NCBI GenBank assembly: GCA_963725665.1 | Contig: CAVRZA010000004.1 | Coordinates: forward strand, 256,001 to 320,000 | Origin: an uncultured Actinomycetes bacterium | GTDB taxonomy: Bacteria; Actinomycetota; Thermoleophilia; UBA2241 | Length of the DNA: 64,000 nt | Reading direction: 5' to 3' | In this document: piece after piece, positions 8,962 to 42,076 of the stretch | Numbering within the stretch: position 1 is the first letter of the stretch | Layout: each line of letters opens with the position of its first letter | Notes under the pieces: model-generated | What the model was told of the DNA's origin: nothing | The model's database searches: none | Seen by the model: only the letters and a program-made list of their open reading frames with translations | Made by a program: the position numbers and the translations under genes

Positions 8962-9081
8962 TTCAGCGAAAGAGCCGGGTGTTTCACCCCTGCAGTCTGT
9001 ACATTTTGGAGTATGTTATTGGCCTGCGTGGAGAGGCTCGCCACGCGCTCGCGAAGCTTCCGGTTCCGTCACCTCGCTATG

Positions 9082-33103: not shown

Positions 33104-36100
33104 ATGGCTTCCGGCTTCGTCCATCTCCACGTCCACAGCGAGTACTCGCTCCTCGACGGCGCTTGCCGCGTCCCAGCTCTAGTCGACCGAGTGCGCGAGC
33201 TCGGCATGCCGGCGGTGGCGCTGACCGACCATGGCTCGCTCGCGGGGACCGTGCAGTTCTACAGCGAGGCGCGCAAGGCCGGGGTGAAGCCGATCATCGG
33301 TCTCGAGCTGTACATCGTCGACGACCGTCTCAACCGCCAGAGCGTGCGCGAGGAGCGCTTCCATCTGACGCTCCTCGCGCGCGACGCACACGGCTACCGC
33401 AACCTGGTCGAGCTCTCCACGACGGCCTACCTCGAGGGGTACTGGTACAAGCCGCGCGCCGACTGGCAGCTCCTCTCGCAGCACCACGCGGGCCTCATCT
33501 GTCTCACGGGCTGCATGACGGGGCGCATCGCGCGCCTCGTGCGTGAGGCCCGCGGCGACGAGGCGCTCGCCGAGGTGCTCCGCCTGAAGGAGCTGTTCGG
33601 CTCCGACGACCTCTACGTCGAGTTGCAGGACGCCGGCCTGCCCGAGCAGCGCGAGCTGGTGCCCAAGCTCGTCGCGCTGGCGGGGCAGGCCGGCGTGAAG
33701 ACGGCGGCCACGAACGACGTGCACTACTTGCGCCACGAGGACGCCCACGCGCACGACGCGCTGCTCTGCATCCAGACGCAAAGCATGCTCGACGACGAGA
33801 ACCGCATGCGCTACGGCAGCGACGAGTTCTTCCTCAAGACCGCGGAGGAGATGCGCGAGCGCTTCGCGGCCTACCCCGAGGCCTGCGACGCGACGCTCGA
33901 GATAGCCGAGCGCTGCGCCGTCGAGCTCGAGTTCGGGCGCATCCTGCTGCCGAGCTATCCCGTCCCCGAGGGGGAGACCGAGGAGGGGTACCTGCGCGCG
34001 CTCTGCGAGCTGGGCGTGCGTCAGCGCTATGGGGCGCAGCCCGGACCCGAGGTGCGCGAGCGTCTCGACTACGAGCTCAAGGTCATCTCCGAGATGGGCT
34101 TCAGCGCCTACTTCCTCATCGTCTGGGACTTCGTCAAGTTCGCCAAGGACAACGGCATCGCCGTCGGTCCGGGCCGCGGGTCGGCGGCGGGGAGCATCGT
34201 CTCCTACGTCCTGAGCATCACCGATCTCGACCCGCTCAAGTACGACCTGCTCTTCGAGCGCTTCCTGAACCCGGGGCGCAAGTCGATGCCCGACATCGAC
34301 ATGGACTTCTCGGTCGAGCGCCGCGACGAGGTCATCGAGTACGTGGCCCAGAAGTACGGCCGCGACCGCGTGGCCCAGATCATCACCTTCGGCACCATGG
34401 CGGCGCGCGCCGCGACGCGAGACGCGGCGCGCGTCATGGGCCTGCCCTACGCGGTCGGCGACCGCATCGCCAAGATGATCCCCGAGCAGGCGCCGCCGGC
34501 GACCTTCGAGCAGGCCATGGCGCCCGGCGGCGAGCTGCGGCGGGCCTATGAGAGCGACCAGCAGGTCAAGGAGGCCGTCGACCTCGCGCGGGCGCTCGAG
34601 GGACTCATCCGCAACGACTCCATCCACGCCGCCGGCGTGGTCATCTCCGACAAACCGCTCACCGAGTACGTCCCGTTGCAGCAGAAGGGCGAGGCCGAGA
34701 TCGTCACCCAGTTCAGCATGGACGACGTGGCGAAGCTGGGGCTCCTCAAGATGGACTTCCTCGGCCTGCGCAACCTCGACGTCATCGAGGCGGCCCTGGG
34801 GCTCATCGAGAATAGCCGGGGCGTCTGCGTCGACATGACGACGCTGCCTCTCGACGACGCGAAGACCTACGAGATGCTGCGCCGCGGTGACGCCCTGGGC
34901 GTCTTCCAGTTCGAGTCGGGTGGCATGCGCGACGCGCTGCGCGAGGTCGGGCCGACGCAGTTCGAAGACCTGATCGCCATCGTGGCTCTCTACCGGCCCG
35001 GACCGATGCAGTACATCCCTGCCTACGCGCGCAACAAGAGGGATCCGGGAGCGGTGGTCTACGACCACGAGCTGCTGCGCCCGATCCTCGAGTCGACGCA
35101 CGGGGTGACGATCTACCAGGAGCAATACATGGCCATCGCCCGCCGCGTGGCCGGCTTCACCCCGGCGCAGGCGGACGATCTGCGCAAGGCCATCGGCAAG
35201 AAGGACAAGAAGCTGATGGCCACGCTCAAGGAGCCCCTCATGGCGGGTCTGCGCGCGAGCGGCGTGCCGCAGCAGGTCATCAACAGGCTGTGGAGCAACT
35301 TCGAGGCCACGGGCGACTACTCGTTCAACAAGAGCCACGCCGCCTGTTACGCGCTCATCAGCTACCGCACAGCCTTCCTCAAGGCCAACTACCCGGTCGA
35401 GTACATGGCGGCGCTGATCTCGAGCGTCATGAACACCAAGGACAAGGTGCCGTTCTACGTCAACGCCTGCCACGAGATGGCGATCGAGGTCTTGCCGCCG
35501 GACGTCAACGAGAGCGACGTCGGGTTCACCGTGGTCGGCGGCAAGATCCGCTTCGGACTCAATGCGGTGAAGGGCGTGGGGAGGGGGGCCATCGAGGCGA
35601 TCGTCGCCGCGCGCGCCGACGGCCCCTTCACCTCGCTGTACGACTTCTGCGCCCGCGTCGACTCGGCCCTGGTCAACAAGCGGACGCTGGAGGCTCTCAT
35701 CAAGAGCGGAGCCCTCGATTCCACCGGCGACACGCGGCGCGGCATGCTCGCGGCGCTGCCCGCCGCGGCCAGCGAGGGGGAGCGCCGGCGCAAGGACCGG
35801 GCCGTGGGCCAGGTCGATCTCTTCGCCCACGCCGAGGTCGAGGAGACCCACCACGCGCCCATCTCGCGTGAGGAGTTCGAGCGCGAGACGCTGCTGCGCT
35901 GCGAGAAGGAGGCGCTGGGGCTGTACGTCTCTTCGCACCCGTTGCAGGGCCTGCGCCAGCAGCTCAAGGACGAGGTAGACGCCACCGTGAGCGAGCTGGC
36001 CGACATGCCCGACGGGACCATCCTCTGGACCGGCGGCGTCATCTCCGGTCTGCAGCGGCGGCCGACGCGCAGCGGCGGCATCATGGTCATCTTCCGCCTC

Positions 36101-36511
36101 GACGACGTCGACGGCGGCATCGAGGTAGTGGCCTTCAACACCGTGGCGGAGCAGTACGCCGAGCTCCTGCGCGAGGACGCCATCGTCAAGGTGAAGGGCC
36201 GTCTCGACCGCAAGAGCGAGGACGAGACCAAGCTGATCGCTATGGAGGTGCGGCCGTTCGGCGGCGTCAGCGAGTCGCGACCGCTGACGGTGACCGTCGA
36301 CGCCGACCGCGTGCAACTCGCCCTGCTGCAGGAGCTCAAGGAGATCCTCGCCTCGTTCCCGGGTCAGGTGCCCGTCGTCCTACAGATGGAGTCGCTCCAG
36401 GGCCAGCAGCGGCTGCGCATCGGCGATGGCTATCGCGTGGCCCCAGTGGGCGGCCTCTACGCCGAGCTCAAGGCGCTGCTCGGCGAGAGCTGCATCCAGA
36501 TCGCTTGCTAG
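33104..36511 (+). CDS. dnaE: DNA polymerase III alpha subunit
   Basis: PHP HLHVHSEYSLLDG, GRGSAAGS, PDIDMDF and FNKSH motifs; OB fold. Confidence 0.97.
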   Translation: MASGFVHLHVHSEYSLLDGACRVPALVDRVRELGMPAVALTDHGSLAGTVQFYSEARKAGVKPIIGLELYIVDDRLNRQSVREERFHLTLLARDAHGYRNLVELSTTAYLEGYWYKPRADWQLLSQHHAGLICLTGCMTGRIARLVREARGDEALAEVLRLKELFGSDDLYVELQDAGLPEQRELVPKLVALAGQAGVKTAATNDVHYLRHEDAHAHDALLCIQTQSMLDDENRMRYGSDEFFLKTAEEMRERFAAYPEACDATLEIAERCAVELEFGRILLPSYPVPEGETEEGYLRALCELGVRQRYGAQPGPEVRERLDYELKVISEMGFSAYFLIVWDFVKFAKDNGIAVGPGRGSAAGSIVSYVLSITDLDPLKYDLLFERFLNPGRKSMPDIDMDFSVERRDEVIEYVAQKYGRDRVAQIITFGTMAARAATRDAARVMGLPYAVGDRIAKMIPEQAPPATFEQAMAPGGELRRAYESDQQVKEAVDLARALEGLIRNDSIHAAGVVISDKPLTEYVPLQQKGEAEIVTQFSMDDVAKLGLLKMDFLGLRNLDVIEAALGLIENSRGVCVDMTTLPLDDAKTYEMLRRGDALGVFQFESGGMRDALREVGPTQFEDLIAIVALYRPGPMQYIPAYARNKRDPGAVVYDHELLRPILESTHGVTIYQEQYMAIARRVAGFTPAQADDLRKAIGKKDKKLMATLKEPLMAGLRASGVPQQVINRLWSNFEATGDYSFNKSHAACYALISYRTAFLKANYPVEYMAALISSVMNTKDKVPFYVNACHEMAIEVLPPDVNESDVGFTVVGGKIRFGLNAVKGVGRGAIEAIVAARADGPFTSLYDFCARVDSALVNKRTLEALIKSGALDSTGDTRRGMLAALPAAASEGERRRKDRAVGQVDLFAHAEVEETHHAPISREEFERETLLRCEKEALGLYVSSHPLQGLRQQLKDEVDATVSELADMPDGTILWTGGVISGLQRRPTRSGGIMVIFRLDDVDGGIEVVAFNTVAEQYAELLREDAIVKVKGRLDRKSEDETKLIAMEVRPFGGVSESRPLTVTVDADRVQLALLQELKEILASFPGQVPVVLQMESLQGQQRLRIGDGYRVAPVGGLYAELKALLGESCIQIAC

Positions 36512-36677
36512 ACCGGTTCCGGCGCCGGGGACGAGCGGCTACACCTGTGCGCTGGTCTGCCGCTGTCGCCGAGCGCCGACGGGAGAGTGCCCCCTCGGAC
36601 AGCGTGCTTGGGCCTGCGCTTCGCGGGTAGAGTACAGGTTCCGAGGCCCTCGAAGCGGGCAGCGGGGAGGGACAGGC

Positions 36678-37982
36678 GTGAGGCGCCTTGAGCTGACCGA
36701 CATAGCGGCAACGGTCGCCGAGCTGCGCTCGGTGGCGCCGGCGCGCAGCGACGTGCGCGCGGCGGTCGAGGAGATCGTGGGCGAGGTGCGGCGGCAGGGC
36801 GACGAGGCGCTGCGGCGCCTCACCGAGCGCCTCGACGACGTCGCCCTGCCGCCGCACCTCGCCGTCCCGCCCGAGAAGATGCTTGCCGCGCTGCGCGAGC
36901 TCGACCCCGAGCTGCGCTCGGCCCTCGAGCTCGCCGTCGCCAACATCCGCGCCTATCACGAGCGTGAGGCGCCCGTCTCGTGGCGCGAGACGTTGGCGCA
37001 GGGCCAGACGGTGGGCCAGGAGATCGTGCCGCTGGCCGTCGCAGGCCTCTACGTGCCCGGCGGCCTTGCCGACTATCCCTCGACGGTGCTGATGACCGCC
37101 ATACCGGCACAGGTCGCCGGCGTCGGCAGGCTGGTCGTCTGCTCGGCGCCGCGGCCCGGCGGCGGCGTGGCCGCCGGGGTGGCCGCGGCCTGCGCCCTGC
37201 TGGGCATCACCGACCTGTTCCCGATCGGCGGCGCCCAGGCCGTGGCGGCCATGGCCTACGGCACCGCGCAGGTCCCGCGCTGCGACATCGTGGTCGGTCC
37301 GGGCAACGCCTTCGTCACCGAGGCCAAGCGGCAGGTGATGGGCGACGTGGCGATCGACGGGCTCGCCGGTCCCAGCGAGGTGCTCATCGTCGCCGGCAAG
37401 GGGGCGCGGCCCACCTGGCTGGCTGCAGACCTGCTGGCGCAGGCCGAGCACGGCGCCGGGGCCTCGGGAGTGTTGCTCGACGTGGGCGGCTCGTTGCTCG
37501 ACCGGGTGGAGGCGGAGGTGCGACGCCTCGGCGAGGAGCTGAAGGTTTCCCTCGGCGGTGTGACCTTGGTCGCGTGTCCCTCGCTCGATGACGCGCTCGC
37601 CTTGGTGGACGCCTTCGCTCCTGAGCACCTCGAGCTGCATCTCGACGACGCCGCGGCGCTCGTGCCGCGCGTGCGCGCCGCCGGCGCGGTCTTCGTCGGA
37701 CCATCGACCGCCACGGCGTTCGCCGACTACGGCGCCGGCACCAACCACGTGCTGCCCACGGGCGGCTCGGCCCGCTTCGCGCAGGGCCTTTCGGTGGTCC
37801 ATTTCCAGAGACGCGTGGGGGTGCTCGAGGTAGATGAGGGCTCGGCGTCTCGTCTGGCGCGAGCCGTTGCCGCGATCGCCGGGGAGGAGGGTCTACGCTC
37901 TCACGCGCGCTCGGCGCTGCTCCGGCTCGAGGACGGGCCCGACGCCGAGACGAGCGCCGCGAGGAGCATCGGAGAGAGGTGA
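36678..37982 (+). CDS. hisD: Histidinol dehydrogenase
   Basis: YVPGG, GPGN, AGPSE, QAEH, APEHLE and GTNHVLPT motifs. Confidence 0.93.
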   Translation: MRRLELTDIAATVAELRSVAPARSDVRAAVEEIVGEVRRQGDEALRRLTERLDDVALPPHLAVPPEKMLAALRELDPELRSALELAVANIRAYHEREAPVSWRETLAQGQTVGQEIVPLAVAGLYVPGGLADYPSTVLMTAIPAQVAGVGRLVVCSAPRPGGGVAAGVAAACALLGITDLFPIGGAQAVAAMAYGTAQVPRCDIVVGPGNAFVTEAKRQVMGDVAIDGLAGPSEVLIVAGKGARPTWLAADLLAQAEHGAGASGVLLDVGGSLLDRVEAEVRRLGEELKVSLGGVTLVACPSLDDALALVDAFAPEHLELHLDDAAALVPRVRAAGAVFVGPSTATAFADYGAGTNHVLPTGGSARFAQGLSVVHFQRRVGVLEVDEGSASRLARAVAAIAGEEGLRSHARSALLRLEDGPDAETSAARSIGER

Positions 37983-37992
37983 AAGTGCGGCG

Positions 37993-38589
37993 ATGACAGA
38001 GGCAGGACCCAGGGTGGCCGCGGTCGCCCGAACCACCAGCGAGACGACGGTCTCGGTGCGACTCGACCTCGAAGGCGGGGGCACCGCTCGGGTCGAGACC
38101 GGCATCCGGTTCCTCGATCACATGCTGGAGCTCTTCGCCCACCACAGCGGATTCGGACTCGAGGTGCGCGCCACCGGCGACCTCGACGTCGGCGGCCATC
38201 ACACCGTCGAGGACATCGGCCTCGCCCTCGGACAGGCGCTGCGCGAGGCGGTGGGAGAGAAGCGCGGCATCCGTCGCTACGGGTTCTTCATGCTGCCCAT
38301 GGACGAGGCGCTGGTGCAGGTCGCTATCGAATTCTCGGGGAGGCCCTTCTTTGCCCACAACTTCGAGCTCTCGGGGCTCCGCGTCGGCGACTTCGACGCC
38401 GAGCTCACGAGCCACTTCTTCCAGTCGCTTGTCAACGAGGCGGCCTTGACGCTGCACATCAGGCTGATCAGCGGGAGCGACACGCACCACATCGTCGAGG
38501 CCGTCTTCAAGGGGGTGGCCCGCGCTCTCGGCGTGGCTTGCGAGCGCCACGACCACGACGACCTGCCCTCGGCCAAGGTCGTCCCTTAG
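37993..38589 (+). CDS. hisB: Imidazoleglycerol-phosphate dehydratase
   Basis: FLDHML, HHTVED, PMDEAL and HHIVEA motifs. Confidence 0.94.
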
Positions 38590-38707
38590 GAGGCGCCCGA
38601 GGCTCGAGGCACGTCGGGCGCGGCCTTTCCTCTTATCTCGCCCCGCCTACGGCCGAAAGGGAGTGGGGATGAGTCGACAGGCGAGGCTGGCGACTGAAGG
38701 AGTGCCC

Positions 38708-38938
38708 GTGGAGGCGCTTTCTGAGATCGTCCTCATCGACTACGGCCGGGGTCACCTAGCCGCGCGCTGCGCCGCCGTCGCCGTGGTGGCCGGCGTGACG
38801 AACCACGGCGGCGGCGTGGTCGCCGCCGTAGCGCGCGACGCTGTCTGGGCGGTACAGTTCCACCCAGAGAAGAGCTCGTCGGTCGGGCTGCTCCTGGCCA
38901 ACTTCATGGCGCCGGTGCGAAAGGAGCGTGCAAGGTGA
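38708..38938 (+). pseudogene. hisH: hisH stub: in-frame internal deletion, 76 aa
   Basis: N-terminal [11 protein letters not shown] joined to C-terminal [15 protein letters not shown]; the catalytic GICLG region is missing. Confidence 0.85.
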
Positions 38939-39654
38939 AACTGTTCCCTGCCATCGACATCCAGGAAGGCCGCGCCGTCCGGCTGCGGCGCGGCGACTTC
39001 GCCGATGCGACCGTCTTCGCCGACGACCCCGTGGAGCAGGCGCGCGACTGGGAGCGGCAGGGGGCTGACGCGTTGCACGTCGTCGACCTCGACGGGGCTC
39101 GGCGAGGCACCCTGGTCAACTTCGACATCGTGGGCGCCATCGTCGACGCGGTCGGCATCCCCGTCGAGTACGGCGGCGGCGTGCGCAGCTCCGAGACGCT
39201 CCAGACGGTGGCGGCGAGCGGGGTCGAGTGGGTCGTACTGGGCACCGCCGCCGTCACGGACCTCGACCTTCTCGACGAGGCCCTGCGCGTGCTCGGCCCA
39301 CGGCTCGTCGTGGGCGTCGACTGCGAAAGCGGCATTGTCGCCACGCACGGCTGGCAGGAGCGCTCCGAGATGAGCGCCCTGCACTTCGTGCACCTGCTCA
39401 AGGATCGGGGAGTGCGGCGCATCGTCTACACCGACGTGCTGCGTGACGGCATGCTCGAGGGGCCCAACCTGGAGGGGCTCCACGAGCTGACGGAAGGGAC
39501 CCAGCTCGAGGTCGTCATGTCGGGCGGTATCAGTCGCCTCGAAGACCTGCGCTGGGTCAAGCGCGAGGCACCCGATGTGGTGGCCATCATCGTCGGCCGT
39601 GCCCTGTACGAGGGTGCCTTCACGCTCGCTCAGGCCAAGGCCGCCCTCGCCTAG
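38935..39654 (+). CDS. hisA: ProFAR isomerase
   Basis: [31 protein letters not shown] and SGG motifs. Confidence 0.94.
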
Positions 39655-39824
39655 TGGCCACGCGCCGCGTCATCCCCTGTCTCGACGTCCTCGACGGCCG
39701 GGTCGTGAAGGGCGTCCGGCTCGTGGGGGTGCGCGACGCCGGCGATCCGGTCGAGCTCGCGGTGCGCTACGACCGCGACGACTGCGACGAGCTCGTCTTT
39801 CCTAGGTCGGGCTGCGACGGGTGA
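39654..39824 (+). pseudogene. hisF: hisF stub, 56 aa
   Basis: [29 protein letters not shown]....DELVF, then abrupt end; not in the supplied ORF track. Confidence 0.88.
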
Positions 39825-40516
39825 GCGGGCCGCGGCGTGTCGCGCTGGCGGACCTGGGGCCGGCCGACGGCCTGCGCCTCATCGACCTCGTGGCCGAGGC
39901 CGGCCTGGTCTGCTTCCCGACCGACACACTCTACGGCATCGGCGGGCTGCTACGACCGTCGGTCGGGCGGCGCGTCTACGAAGCCAAACGGCGCGCCGCC
40001 GACAAACCTCTCCAGGTCATCTTCCCGACCGTCGAGGCCTTGGTCGGCGCGGTTGCGCTGGGCAGGCGGACGCTCGACGCGGTGCGGCGGCTGCTCCCCG
40101 GTGGGCTGACGCTGCTCCTCCCCTACCCTGTGGGGCTCGACTACCCGCCGCCGGGCAAGGTCGAGGTGCCGGGGAAGGGGCAGCGCCGGCGTGAGGTCGA
40201 GACGCTGGGCGTGCGCGTGCCGCGCTGGCCCGAGGCTGCCCGCGTGCTCGGCGCGCTCAGCCTTCCCTTGCTCGGCTCCAGCGCCAACGTGAGCGGCGGG
40301 CCGCCGGCGCGCAGCCTCGACGAGGTCGATGCCGAGATCAGGGCGGCGTGCGATCTCTTGCTCGATGCCGGACCCGTGGCCGGGGTGCCGTCGACGGTCG
40401 TCGACCTGACCACCTACGGGCAGGGGCGGCGCTGGCGCGTCCTGCGCACGGGAGCGGTGGGCGAGGACGAGGTACGCGAGATGCTCGAACGCAGGCGCGA
40501 GGACCTGCCGCGGTGA
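39821..40516 (+). CDS. tsaC: L-threonylcarbamoyladenylate synthase (YrdC/Sua5)
   Basis: [25 protein letters not shown] and PSTVVD motifs. Confidence 0.88.
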
Positions 40517-40532
40517 TAGGCTGCATGGCACC

Positions 40533-41420
40533 ATGAGACGGCTGCCGTTCCAACAGGTCGACGTGTTCACCGAGCGCCCGTTCGCGGGCAATCCCCTGGC
40601 CGTGTTCACCGAGGCGGAAGGCTTGGGCGAGCGCGAGATGCAGGAGATCGCCCGCGAGATGAACCTCTCTGAAACGACGTTCGTCTCGCCTCCGCAGGGT
40701 TCGGGTGACGCGCGCGTGCGCATCTTCACGCCCGAGACCGAGCTGCCGTTCGCCGGTCACCCGAGCGTCGGCACCGCCTGGCTGCTTGTGCACCTGGATC
40801 TGGTTACGGTGCGTGAACCGGTGACGACCGTGGTCCTCGAGCTGGGCGTCGGGCCGACCGCCGTCGACGTCTCCGTCGTCGGCGGTCGGCCGACCAGTGG
40901 CCTCGTGCACCAGGGGCCGGCGGAGTTCGGCGAGGAGATCTCGGCGAGCGAGGCGGCGGCGGTGCTCGGTCTGCAAGGGAGCGACCTGCACGAAGAGCTC
41001 GTCCCCCGTGTCGTCGGCACCGGGCTCTCCTACGCCATCATCCCGCTGCGCAGCACCCGGACCCTCGCTCGCGCGTGGTTCGACATCGCCTTGCTGCCCG
41101 AGTTCGAGCGCGCCCATGCCGAGGTCTACCCCTTCGCGTTCACGGGCGAGGAGGAGCCGTGGGTGGCTGCTCGCGGTCTCTTCCCCCTGGTCGGCATCCC
41201 TGAGGACCCGGCGACCGGCAGCGCGGCGGGCCCGCTGGCGGCCTACCTGGCGCGCGCCGGGCTGCTGCCGGCTGGGGCGGCCCGCGTGGTCGCCCAGGGC
41301 GACCACGCGGGCCGCCCCAGCCGGCTCACCGTCTCCGTGACCGAGGAGCACGGACGTATCGTCGACGTGCAGGTCGCCGGCGGGGTGGTGCCGGTGCTCT
41401 CGGGCGTGCTCGAGCTGTAG
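40533..41420 (+). CDS. PhzF-family isomerase/epimerase
   Basis: VDVFT..FAGNP, NLSETTF, ELPFAGHP and EDPATGSA motifs. Confidence 0.92.
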   Translation: MRRLPFQQVDVFTERPFAGNPLAVFTEAEGLGEREMQEIAREMNLSETTFVSPPQGSGDARVRIFTPETELPFAGHPSVGTAWLLVHLDLVTVREPVTTVVLELGVGPTAVDVSVVGGRPTSGLVHQGPAEFGEEISASEAAAVLGLQGSDLHEELVPRVVGTGLSYAIIPLRSTRTLARAWFDIALLPEFERAHAEVYPFAFTGEEEPWVAARGLFPLVGIPEDPATGSAAGPLAAYLARAGLLPAGAARVVAQGDHAGRPSRLTVSVTEEHGRIVDVQVAGGVVPVLSGVLEL

Positions 41421-41626
41421 AGGAAGCCTGCGATCCGGCCTGAGGCCGCCACGGCCGTGTCGACCGGTTCCGCGCCGCCCCTCGGCCCTCGTCTAGCTCC
41501 GCTTTGGTAGAATCGGCCGTGATCGAGAGTGTTGCTCGTGCCCGCCCGACGCCACCGCCCGACCGCCGTCGTGACGCGCGCCCGGGCCCCCGCTCGAGCG
41601 GCGCCCTGAGCAGGGAGGAGGACGGG

Positions 41627-42076
41627 ATGAGGATCGCGGCTGGAGCCGATCACGCCGGCTTCGAGCTCAAGGACGCGCTGGTCGTGCGCCTGCGAGAAGC
41701 GGGCCACGAGGTCGTCGATGTGGGCACGAGCTCGCCGGAATCGGTCGACTATCCGACCTTCGCTCACGCGGTCGCCCGGAGCGTGGCTGCCGGAGATGTC
41801 GACCGCGGCCTGCTCGTCTGCGGCACGGGCATCGGCATGTGCATGGCGGCGAACCGCCATCCCGGGGTCCGGGCCGCCGACTGCTTCACGGAGCACCTCG
41901 CCGAGCTGTCGCGCCGCCACAACGACGCCAATGTCCTCTGTCTGGCGGGGCGCAGCCTCGACGAGGGAGAGGCGTGGGCGATCACCGAGCTCTGGCTCGC
42001 CACGCCCTTCGAGGGCGACCGTCACGCGCGGCGCGTCGCTCAGATCGACGAGACGACCGCCGCAGAGGAGGCCTGA
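41627..42076 (+). CDS. rpiB: Ribose-5-phosphate isomerase B
   Basis: DHAG, DYP, CGTGIG, HNDAN and RHARRV motifs. Confidence 0.93.
   Translation: MRIAAGADHAGFELKDALVVRLREAGHEVVDVGTSSPESVDYPTFAHAVARSVAAGDVDRGLLVCGTGIGMCMAANRHPGVRAADCFTEHLAELSRRHNDANVLCLAGRSLDEGEAWAITELWLATPFEGDRHARRVAQIDETTAAEEA

Follow-up and report, generated by a model that had tools for sequence, protein, structure and literature searches.

In-frame hisH and hisF relics in a histidine gene cluster of an uncultured actinobacterium, and erosion of the same locus in its relatives

The histidine gene cluster and its two stubs

The DNA analyzed here (the window) is a stretch of 64,000 nucleotides from an uncultured Actinomycetes bacterium (Thermoleophilia; UBA2241), and corresponds to positions 256001 to 320000 of contig C4 (CAVRZA010000004.1; 654 kb) of assembly GCA_963725665.1. 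This source genome, hereafter G000, comprises 3.73 Mb in 12 contigs, with 97.5% completeness and 5% contamination. The window carries a cluster of histidine biosynthesis genes in the order dnaE-hisD-hisB-hisH'-hisA-hisF'-Sua5/YciO/YrdC-family gene-PhzF-family gene-rpiB (Table 1), in which the genes for both subunits of imidazole glycerol phosphate (IGP) synthase, hisH and hisF, are reduced to short in-frame stubs (hisH' and hisF').

Alignment of hisH' with full-length relatives shows that ∼13 N-terminal residues (the IDYG region) are fused in frame to the last ∼55 (the QFHPEKS region); the internal, in-frame deletion spans ∼140 codons and removes the segment containing the catalytic cysteine (GVCLG in relatives). 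With this nucleophilic segment deleted, the product cannot be assigned to HisH, and it matches only positions 148 to 196 of the 198 in the NCBIfam model TIGR01855 (36.1 bits, cut-off 105.4) and falls short of the PF00117 cut-off (20.9 versus 22.8 bits). Alternative starts for this frame occur at an ATG at 38669 (89 amino acids) and a GTG at 38663 (91 amino acids). In hisF', codons 1 to 49 are fused in frame to seven terminal codons that resemble the natural C-terminus of relatives, and ∼200 codons are deleted. Its product covers positions 1–49 of 254 in TIGR00735 (63.1 bits, NCBIfam cut-off 294.55) and positions 1–48 of 228 in PF00977, well short of a complete HisF (beta-alpha)8 barrel. GTGA overlaps connect hisH' with hisA (38935–38938) and hisF' with the Sua5/YciO/YrdC-family (tsaC-like) gene (39821–39824), and a TAGTG joins the hisA stop to the hisF' start. 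Over the regions that they retain, the stub frames share 62–80% identity with functional proteins. Homology at both ends, an open frame, native starts with stop/start overlaps, and relaxed constraint (described below) together identify both stubs as deletion relics.

The initial annotation of this DNA, made from the sequence by itself, had described these stubs and their GTGA coupling, and open reading frames (ORFs), NCBIfam matches, and alignments bear it out in every particular. It had also called hisD, hisB, and hisA full length, which agrees with end-to-end profile matches that reach or exceed a curated cut-off. The true start of hisD is probably near 36700, as the profile match begins only at residue 114 of the listed ORF. 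The hisB product matches its NCBIfam profile over positions 4–191 of 194 and aligns to 2f1d across residues 6–187. In HisA, the segments PAIDI and YTDV..DG, which contain residues that we take to be catalytic, align with solved HisA/PriA chains. Against the PriA equivalog TIGR01919, the hisA product scores 163.3 bits (cut-off 306.45), and it is therefore not classified as PriA.

An assembly artefact, whereby full copies of both genes in the organism were collapsed in the assembly, was weighed against the coverage of the two junctions. Coverage was assessed with contigs of other metagenomes rather than with source reads, and only part of the matching pieces and their differences was listed. Among these, one contig (X4, record 30) spans 39734–39836 across the hisF junction with 31 nt or more on either side of it, a second (X3, record 24) covers 39778–39925 with no differences, and a third (X2, record 13) covers 39424–39816. 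The hisH junction (∼38760) is bridged by none of the metagenome pieces listed, which is the one observation in favor of an artefact. Against it stand the in-frame nature of the deletions, the retention of homologous gene ends, the position in the middle of a 654-kb contig, the independent contigs over the hisF junction, equivalent relics in a different genus (G008, below), and the drift of stub residues, which an assembly collapse would not yield. Misassembly of the stubs is unlikely, and we regard intact genes hidden by collapse as the most improbable of the explanations considered.

Table 1. Coordinates of genes and signals at the his locus in the window.
Feature	Positions	Strand	Basis and remarks
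dnaE (DNA polymerase III alpha)	33104..36511	+	ORF; conserved left border of locus
hisD, full length	36426..37982	+	TIGR00069 434 bits, profile 1–393/393
hisB (imidazoleglycerol-phosphate dehydratase), full length	37993..38589	+	NF002111 243.5 bits, cut-off 231
Shine-Dalgarno match AAGGAG	38697..38702	+	5 nt before GTG of the hisH stub; -8.7 kcal/mol
hisH relic, 76 amino acids	38708..38938	+	GTG to TGA; junction near 38760–38765
Shine-Dalgarno match AAGGAG for hisA	38921..38926	+	within retained hisH 3' end; -9.4 kcal/mol
hisA, full length	38935..39654	+	TIGR00007 240.5 bits, cut-off 228.95, profile 2–230/231
hisF relic, 56 amino acids	39654..39824	+	GTG to TGA; junction at 39800/39801
Sua5/YciO/YrdC-family gene (tsaC-like)	39821..40516	+	PF01300 110.8 bits, cut-off 25.1
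PhzF-family isomerase	40533..41420	+	16 nt past the tsaC-like gene; syntenic in relatives

The flanking dnaE is 70–78% identical to the syntenic dnaE of relatives. The tsaC-like gene scores 95.9 bits on TIGR00057, under the equivalog cut-off of 123.2, and is the sole strong Sua5/YrdC-family match in the G000 genome; given the place of this family in N6-threonylcarbamoyladenosine (t6A) synthesis, the gene is presumably needed.

Histidine and tryptophan genes absent from the genome

The whole genome was searched in six frames with hidden Markov models (HMMs) of the HisF, HisH, HisG, and HisI (PRA-CH) families, for which controls were positive in 14 of 14 reference genomes. No second HisF, HisH, or fused form was found in G000. 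Apart from hisF' and hisA, the HisF model aligned only to part of an unrelated 578-residue frame (∼30 bits), a frame that also occurs in relatives; the remaining weak matches in the HisF and HisH searches are unrelated barrels and amidotransferases. HisG gave no matches in G000, either with HMMs or by tblastn with the proteins of relatives, and the HisI PRA-CH domain likewise had none in the six-frame search. In the case of hisI, the flanks of the gene in two relatives (G003 and G012) map collinearly to C4:544897-545619 and C4:546074-547621 of G000, and the short gap between them holds no hisI-like frame in any frame. Because this syntenic gap encodes nothing resembling HisI, the loss is a real deletion rather than a hole in the assembly. 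The flanks of the unlinked, long hisG of relatives are scattered in G000, with no conserved synteny. Additionally, trpF, trpC, and trpD were not found in the G000 genome. The gene hisC is present (342 bits), and the HisE model (PF01503) gives weak matches only, even in prototrophic relatives.

The genome therefore does not encode a complete histidine pathway, with zero matches for HisG and HisI and stubs only for HisH and HisF; steps 1, 3, and 5, at a minimum, have been lost. This bears on the two readings that the initial annotation had offered. It had proposed that exactly one step was lost and that a copy elsewhere had displaced the IGP synthase; the first part does not hold, as HisG and HisI are also absent, and the whole-genome searches recovered no candidate for the second. 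Its alternative, histidine auxotrophy, fits these results, and the loss of HisG and HisI is the kind of decay among other his genes that it had itself named as counting against displacement.

A broader form of displacement, in which an unrelated or fused enzyme elsewhere has replaced IGP synthase and the pathway still runs, would be in keeping with hisD, hisB, hisA, and hisC, all of which are intact and typical by HMM. Fused IGP synthase of the yeast HIS7 type and the stand-alone HisF/HisH paralogues WbuZ and AglZ/HisF2 are known alternative forms, and none of them occurs in G000. With HisG and HisI missing as well, three unrelated replacements would be required, and with steps 1 and 3 gone, any enzyme standing in for IGP synthase would be left without a substrate. 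The trp genes have been lost from the same genome, and relatives show plain erosion at the locus. Displacement is thus very improbable. We consider it likely, with good confidence, that hisH' and hisF' are what is left of two dead genes, that their lineage no longer makes histidine de novo, and that nothing replaces the IGP synthase. Each gene would have lost its interior by an in-frame, within-gene deletion that left the native start, the next ribosome-binding site, and the overlaps in place. Import of histidine, as well as of tryptophan, is predicted for this organism.

A second hisD-family gene at C6:42439-43648 of G000 is interrupted by a single frameshift that leaves two frames (330 and 78 bits), and may be a pseudogene or reflect an error in sequencing; G008, G012, G005, G001, and G011 have intact, unlinked hisD copies of the same type. 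Among the family genomes besides G000, 13 of 24 have phosphoribosylanthranilate isomerase (PRAI), and the same number have indole-3-glycerol phosphate synthase (IGPS); the two are missing together from the same genomes, including G003, G005, and G012. Amino-acid auxotrophies seem to be common in this family.

Erosion of the locus in relatives and constraint on the remaining genes

HisF scores above its cut-off in 31 of the 41 family and class genomes compared (G000 included). Typically, the locus in this family reads dnaE-hisZ-hisG(short)-hisD-hisB-hisH-hisA-hisF-tsaC-(phzF)-rpiB, with variants that lack hisZG or hisD in the cluster, while the long hisG and hisI are unlinked to it. Most members harbor two types of hisG, a long, stand-alone form (∼170–180 bits) and a divergent, short form beside hisZ (∼43–76 bits) that often scores under the cut-off.

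Two further eroded forms of the locus were identified. In G008, which belongs to another genus, the order (C61, 7240–9060) is dnaE-hisZ-hisG-hisH relic-hisA-hisF relic-tsaC, with hisG truncated at profile position 154 and hisA intact. The hisH relic retains the part that includes ESSGEGG..KVPHIGWN, followed by a frameshift and then the C-terminus, and thereby differs from the part kept in G000; homology of the hisF relic ends at codon 46–48, a TAG interrupts codon 38, and the frame is fused onto the tsaC ATG. Searches of G008 for hisI, trpC, trpD, and trpF found none of them. In three genomes of genus g2 (G019, G022, and G001), the order is dnaE-hisZ-hisG-hisD-tsaC, with hisG of the short type and hisB through hisF deleted, and no hisI was found in any of the three.

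We analyzed a tree of 22 taxa built from DnaE, TsaC, RpiB, and dCMP deaminase. G008 groups with G002, whose cluster is intact (support 98/92), and G000 is placed elsewhere; a grouping of G000 with G008, chosen post hoc from the tree, is rejected by an approximately unbiased (AU) test (delta lnL 69.9, p = 6.9e-5). The erosions in G000 and G008 are therefore independent. A single ancestral hisF deletion, which the closeness of the 5' breakpoints (one to three codons apart) had made worth considering, is ruled out by the tree and the AU test, and is further disfavored by the different parts of hisH retained in the two relics. The hisF deletion starts after codon 49 in G000 (39786–39800) and after codon 46–48 in G008 (9028–9054), a proximity of about one chance in 40 for a gene of ∼770 nt. 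A deletion hotspot, or a need for the first ∼47 codons of hisF, may lie behind the near-matching breakpoints.

Another g2 genome, G015, has an eroded native locus with a short hisG plus hisD (C13, 46000–58000) and, at C21:9259-11144, a complete his operon in the order hisI-hisG-hisC-hisB-hisH-hisF-hisA, whose genes share 45–53% identity with those of the family; this second operon looks like a re-acquisition by horizontal transfer. A hisA-like match in G011 was rejected as HisF, as it is only 31% identical to HisF and represents a different paralogue.

Constraint was measured as changes at residues that are invariant in functional relatives. The HisF stub of G000 has changed at 5 of 34 such residues, in comparison with 0–1 of 34–35 in each of 17 functional relatives (Fisher p = 7.5e-6 against the pooled relatives), and the stub of G008 at 2 of 27, in addition to its stop. 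A branch codon model (a custom script with GY94+F3x4 and the background fixed from IQ-TREE) gave, for both G000 stubs jointly, a nonsynonymous rate (dN) of 0.126, a synonymous rate (dS) of 1.39, and a ratio (omega) of 0.09, versus a background omega of 0.037; dN in three functional lineages is 0.018–0.068. Omega = 1 across the whole stub branch of G000 is rejected (likelihood-ratio test, LRT, 26), and the neutral-equivalent time of the stubs is ∼0.08 substitutions per site, or ∼5% of the terminal branch. Among differences between related strains, for which only the best-supported ones were listed, all three in the hisF stub are nonsynonymous, and two of them restore an invariant residue. The stubs are drifting as neutral sequence, and the deletions appear recent on the scale of the lineage, a recency that explains the high identity of the stubs to functional proteins. 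The same observations bear on the idea that the stubs are functional small proteins selected as peptides. Frames that remain open with their starts, and the 62–80% identity to functional counterparts, would be expected of such proteins; recency accounts for the identity, while the excess of invariant-residue changes, the nonsynonymous strain differences, the in-frame stop in the hisF relic of G008, and the frameshift in its hisH relic all speak against selected peptides, which are accordingly a very doubtful reading.

The genes that remain full length present a different picture. HisA has changed at 2 of 76 invariant residues in G000 and at 5 of 76 in G008, compared with 0–4 of ∼78 in functional relatives, and its TIGR00007 score is the same in both (240.5 bits; 228.5–247.8 in 11 intact relatives). 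Terminal-branch dN of hisA is 0.123 in G000 and 0.144 in G008 (functional lineages 0.111–0.140), and the four strain differences listed in hisA comprise three synonymous changes and V193I. For HisD, 12 of 180 invariant residues have changed in G000 (2–16 in functional relatives), with a dN of 0.140 (0.089–0.140); for HisB, the values are 6 of 75 (0–8) and 0.133 (0.066–0.132). One HisB change, D120G (38190–38200), converts iddhh to vgghh two residues before the metal-binding HH, at an aspartate kept in all 16 relatives and in the Arabidopsis enzyme, and is a possible first inactivating change. As a control, dN of tsaC is 0.185 in G000 and 0.134 in G008 (0.118–0.130). The dN/dS values that the initial annotation had suggested computing for hisA, hisB, and hisD could be used in part: dN lies within or near the functional range, and omega is unreliable. 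Synonymous sites of hisA, hisD, and tsaC are saturated (dS is huge in four of seven hisA branches), and for this reason dN alone was used. The ratio of hisA to DnaE terminal branches varies from 0.66 to 3.1 among lineages, and this rate variation gives little power. A HisA scan of metagenome contigs for close kin returned, as the best of 80 kept loci, one at 63% identity, which is unusable for estimating dN/dS after the deletions. The contrast of the hisF stub with hisA has a Fisher p of 0.028, that of both stubs with hisA 0.06, and that of both stubs with hisA, hisB, and hisD together 0.14. Thus drift is visible in the stubs but not in hisA, a contrast that is statistically modest.

Several of these results weigh against complete abandonment of the pathway. 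By invariant changes, HMM score, dN, and strain differences, hisA is without visible decay; over the neutral time estimated for the stubs, an unconstrained hisA would be expected to collect ∼11–13 invariant changes, where two were seen. In hisD and hisB, changes are only mildly elevated and no more frequent than in the most divergent functional relatives. In genus g2, hisD has an omega of 0.09–0.12 (dS ∼0.49) since the loss of hisB through hisF, with omega = 1 rejected (LRT 22–26), which indicates purifying selection after the deletion and implies that leftover his genes can have a use of their own. Furthermore, the genome is 97.5% complete, and the absence of the long hisG is a result of the searches, with no syntenic gap beside it.

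These points could suggest that fragments of the pathway are still used, with hisA, and perhaps hisB, hisC, and hisD, selected outside complete de novo synthesis; salvage of cross-fed histidinol via HisD, or a moonlighting isomerase role of HisA, would be examples. The prototroph-like hisA in two independent lineages without hisF, the presence of hisC, and the constrained hisD of g2 are consistent with such use, and HisA/PriA and HisG homologues are known to have been recruited to other pathways (PMC13055916). Without HisG and HisI, however, there is no source of N'-[(5'-phosphoribosyl)formimino]-5-aminoimidazole-4-carboxamide ribonucleotide (ProFAR), and a TrpF-type role is excluded by the absence of trpC, trpD, and trpF; PriA/TrpF moonlighting was likewise rejected as the reason for hisA, as PRAI, IGPS, and TrpD are absent from both G000 and G008. 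Genus g2 has deleted hisA entirely, the D120G change of HisB falls on a signature acidic residue, hisA differs from the stubs only weakly in statistical terms (p = 0.03–0.06), and recency alone could explain the intact genes. Continued use of pathway fragments is, on balance, an unlikely reading. Under abandonment of histidine synthesis, the recency of the deletions may account for the still intact appearance of hisA, hisB, and hisD.

Proposed coupling toward the tsaC-like gene and significance of the locus

The initial annotation had further suggested that the stubs are retained as coupling spacers. The in-frame deletions, the overlaps, the pattern of Shine-Dalgarno (SD) sites, and the parallel erosions support this suggestion in part, at the level of sequence. 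SD duplex energies, computed with a general anti-SD motif in place of one taken from the 16S rRNA of this genome, are -8.6 kcal/mol for hisB, -8.2/-8.7 for hisH', and -9.4 for hisA, near the 5th percentile of background 21-mers. No SD match precedes hisF' (-3.2 kcal/mol), the tsaC-like gene (-4.5), or phzF (-2.8), with a background mean of -4.2. The start codons of hisF' and the tsaC-like gene overlap the preceding stops, and 16 nt lie between the tsaC-like stop and the start of phzF. In relatives, tsaC is without an SD match in four of five tested, and likewise in G008, and its in-frame start overlaps the hisF stop in nine of 10 relatives with an intact cluster, the tenth having an 8-nt gap. 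In genus g2, the new junctions read hisD-GTGA-tsaC (G022), hisD-ATGA-31-codon ORF-GTGA-tsaC (G001), and hisD-GTGA-∼41-codon ORF-13 nt-tsaC (G019). Hence tsaC stays joined to an upstream frame in three independent erosions (G000, G008, and g2). In addition, G000 and G008 independently kept hisA, the SD region of hisA in the hisH 3' end, and the first 46–49 codons of hisF. A scan of 36300–41800 for terminators found one terminator-like site, on the minus strand, which equals the expectation from shuffled sequence.

The stubs may plausibly act as coupling spacers, or as a relay of ribosomes into tsaC. Ribosomes would load at the strong SD sites of hisH' and hisA, and termination-reinitiation would hand them through the SD-less hisF' to the single-copy, SD-less tsaC-like gene; a deletion or frameshift that interrupted this handover would reduce the output of a needed gene and be purged. 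If such a relay operates, the deletions would be in frame and within genes because only those that keep ribosome flow into tsaC survive, and the hisH 3' end (the ribosome-binding site of hisA) and the hisF 5' end (the re-initiation site) would be kept because the relay needs them. A wider proposal, that the relics and the leftover his cistrons are together maintained as a ribosome relay for tsaC, such that the architecture dictates how the pathway is lost, is tentative, and we judge it possible though rather doubtful. As a corollary, hisA may be under selection at the amino-acid level without a source of substrate or a use for product; if true, selection on HisA without the pathway implies an unrecognized HisA activity.

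Some observations count against a relay. In G008 and G019, gaps of 24 and 13 nt take the place of the overlap, and strict overlap is therefore not required. The relay explains an open frame and not the conservation of HisA amino acids, and it also leaves unaccounted for the two independent hisF deletions that start one to three codons apart. No promoter-like sites were found in 36300–41800, with a scan that may not fit actinobacterial promoters; this result, too, is counted here on the opposing side.

Comparable losses and couplings have been described in other systems. A study of Actinomycetaceae (Juarez-Vazquez et al. 2017, eLife; PMC5404923) reports that his and trp genes were lost and HisA/PriA was retained, which is read there as genome decay under relaxed selection. 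The likeness to the present case lies in an actinobacterial lineage that loses his and trp genes while a HisA-family gene persists. In Actinomycetaceae, according to the same study, the retained enzyme serves the remaining pathway (SubHisA2, SubTrpF) and has raised dN/dS, whereas G000 lacks hisG, hisI, hisHF, trpC, trpD, and trpF, and its hisA is not a PriA equivalog and has no detectable relaxation. For the his operons of E. coli and Salmonella, a review (PMC10138114) describes cistrons that overlap and are translationally coupled, together with cryptic Rho-dependent terminators inside cistrons, and these features give a rationale for the polarity of out-of-frame lesions on downstream genes. 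All genes of the enterobacterial operons are functional in that account; in the high-GC actinobacterium studied here, the predicted chain runs instead via two relics into a Sua5/YrdC gene that is not a his gene. Keyword searches of open-access text found no paper on hisH/hisF relics in this group. The locus is a well-documented instance of a known process, namely pathway loss with in-frame relics inside an operon that is still used.

In annotation terms, G000 should be recorded as auxotrophic for histidine and tryptophan, even though automated pipelines may report five his genes at this cluster. Attempts to grow the family's uncultured actinobacteria from soil and sediment will probably have to supply both amino acids. 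The conservation of hisA in two lineages that lack hisF would be of wider interest if confirmed. From an evolutionary viewpoint, the locus shows one operon, beside a needed gene, eroded independently several times and caught at different stages, and it is a compact system for asking whether coupling and polarity filter the deletions that survive.

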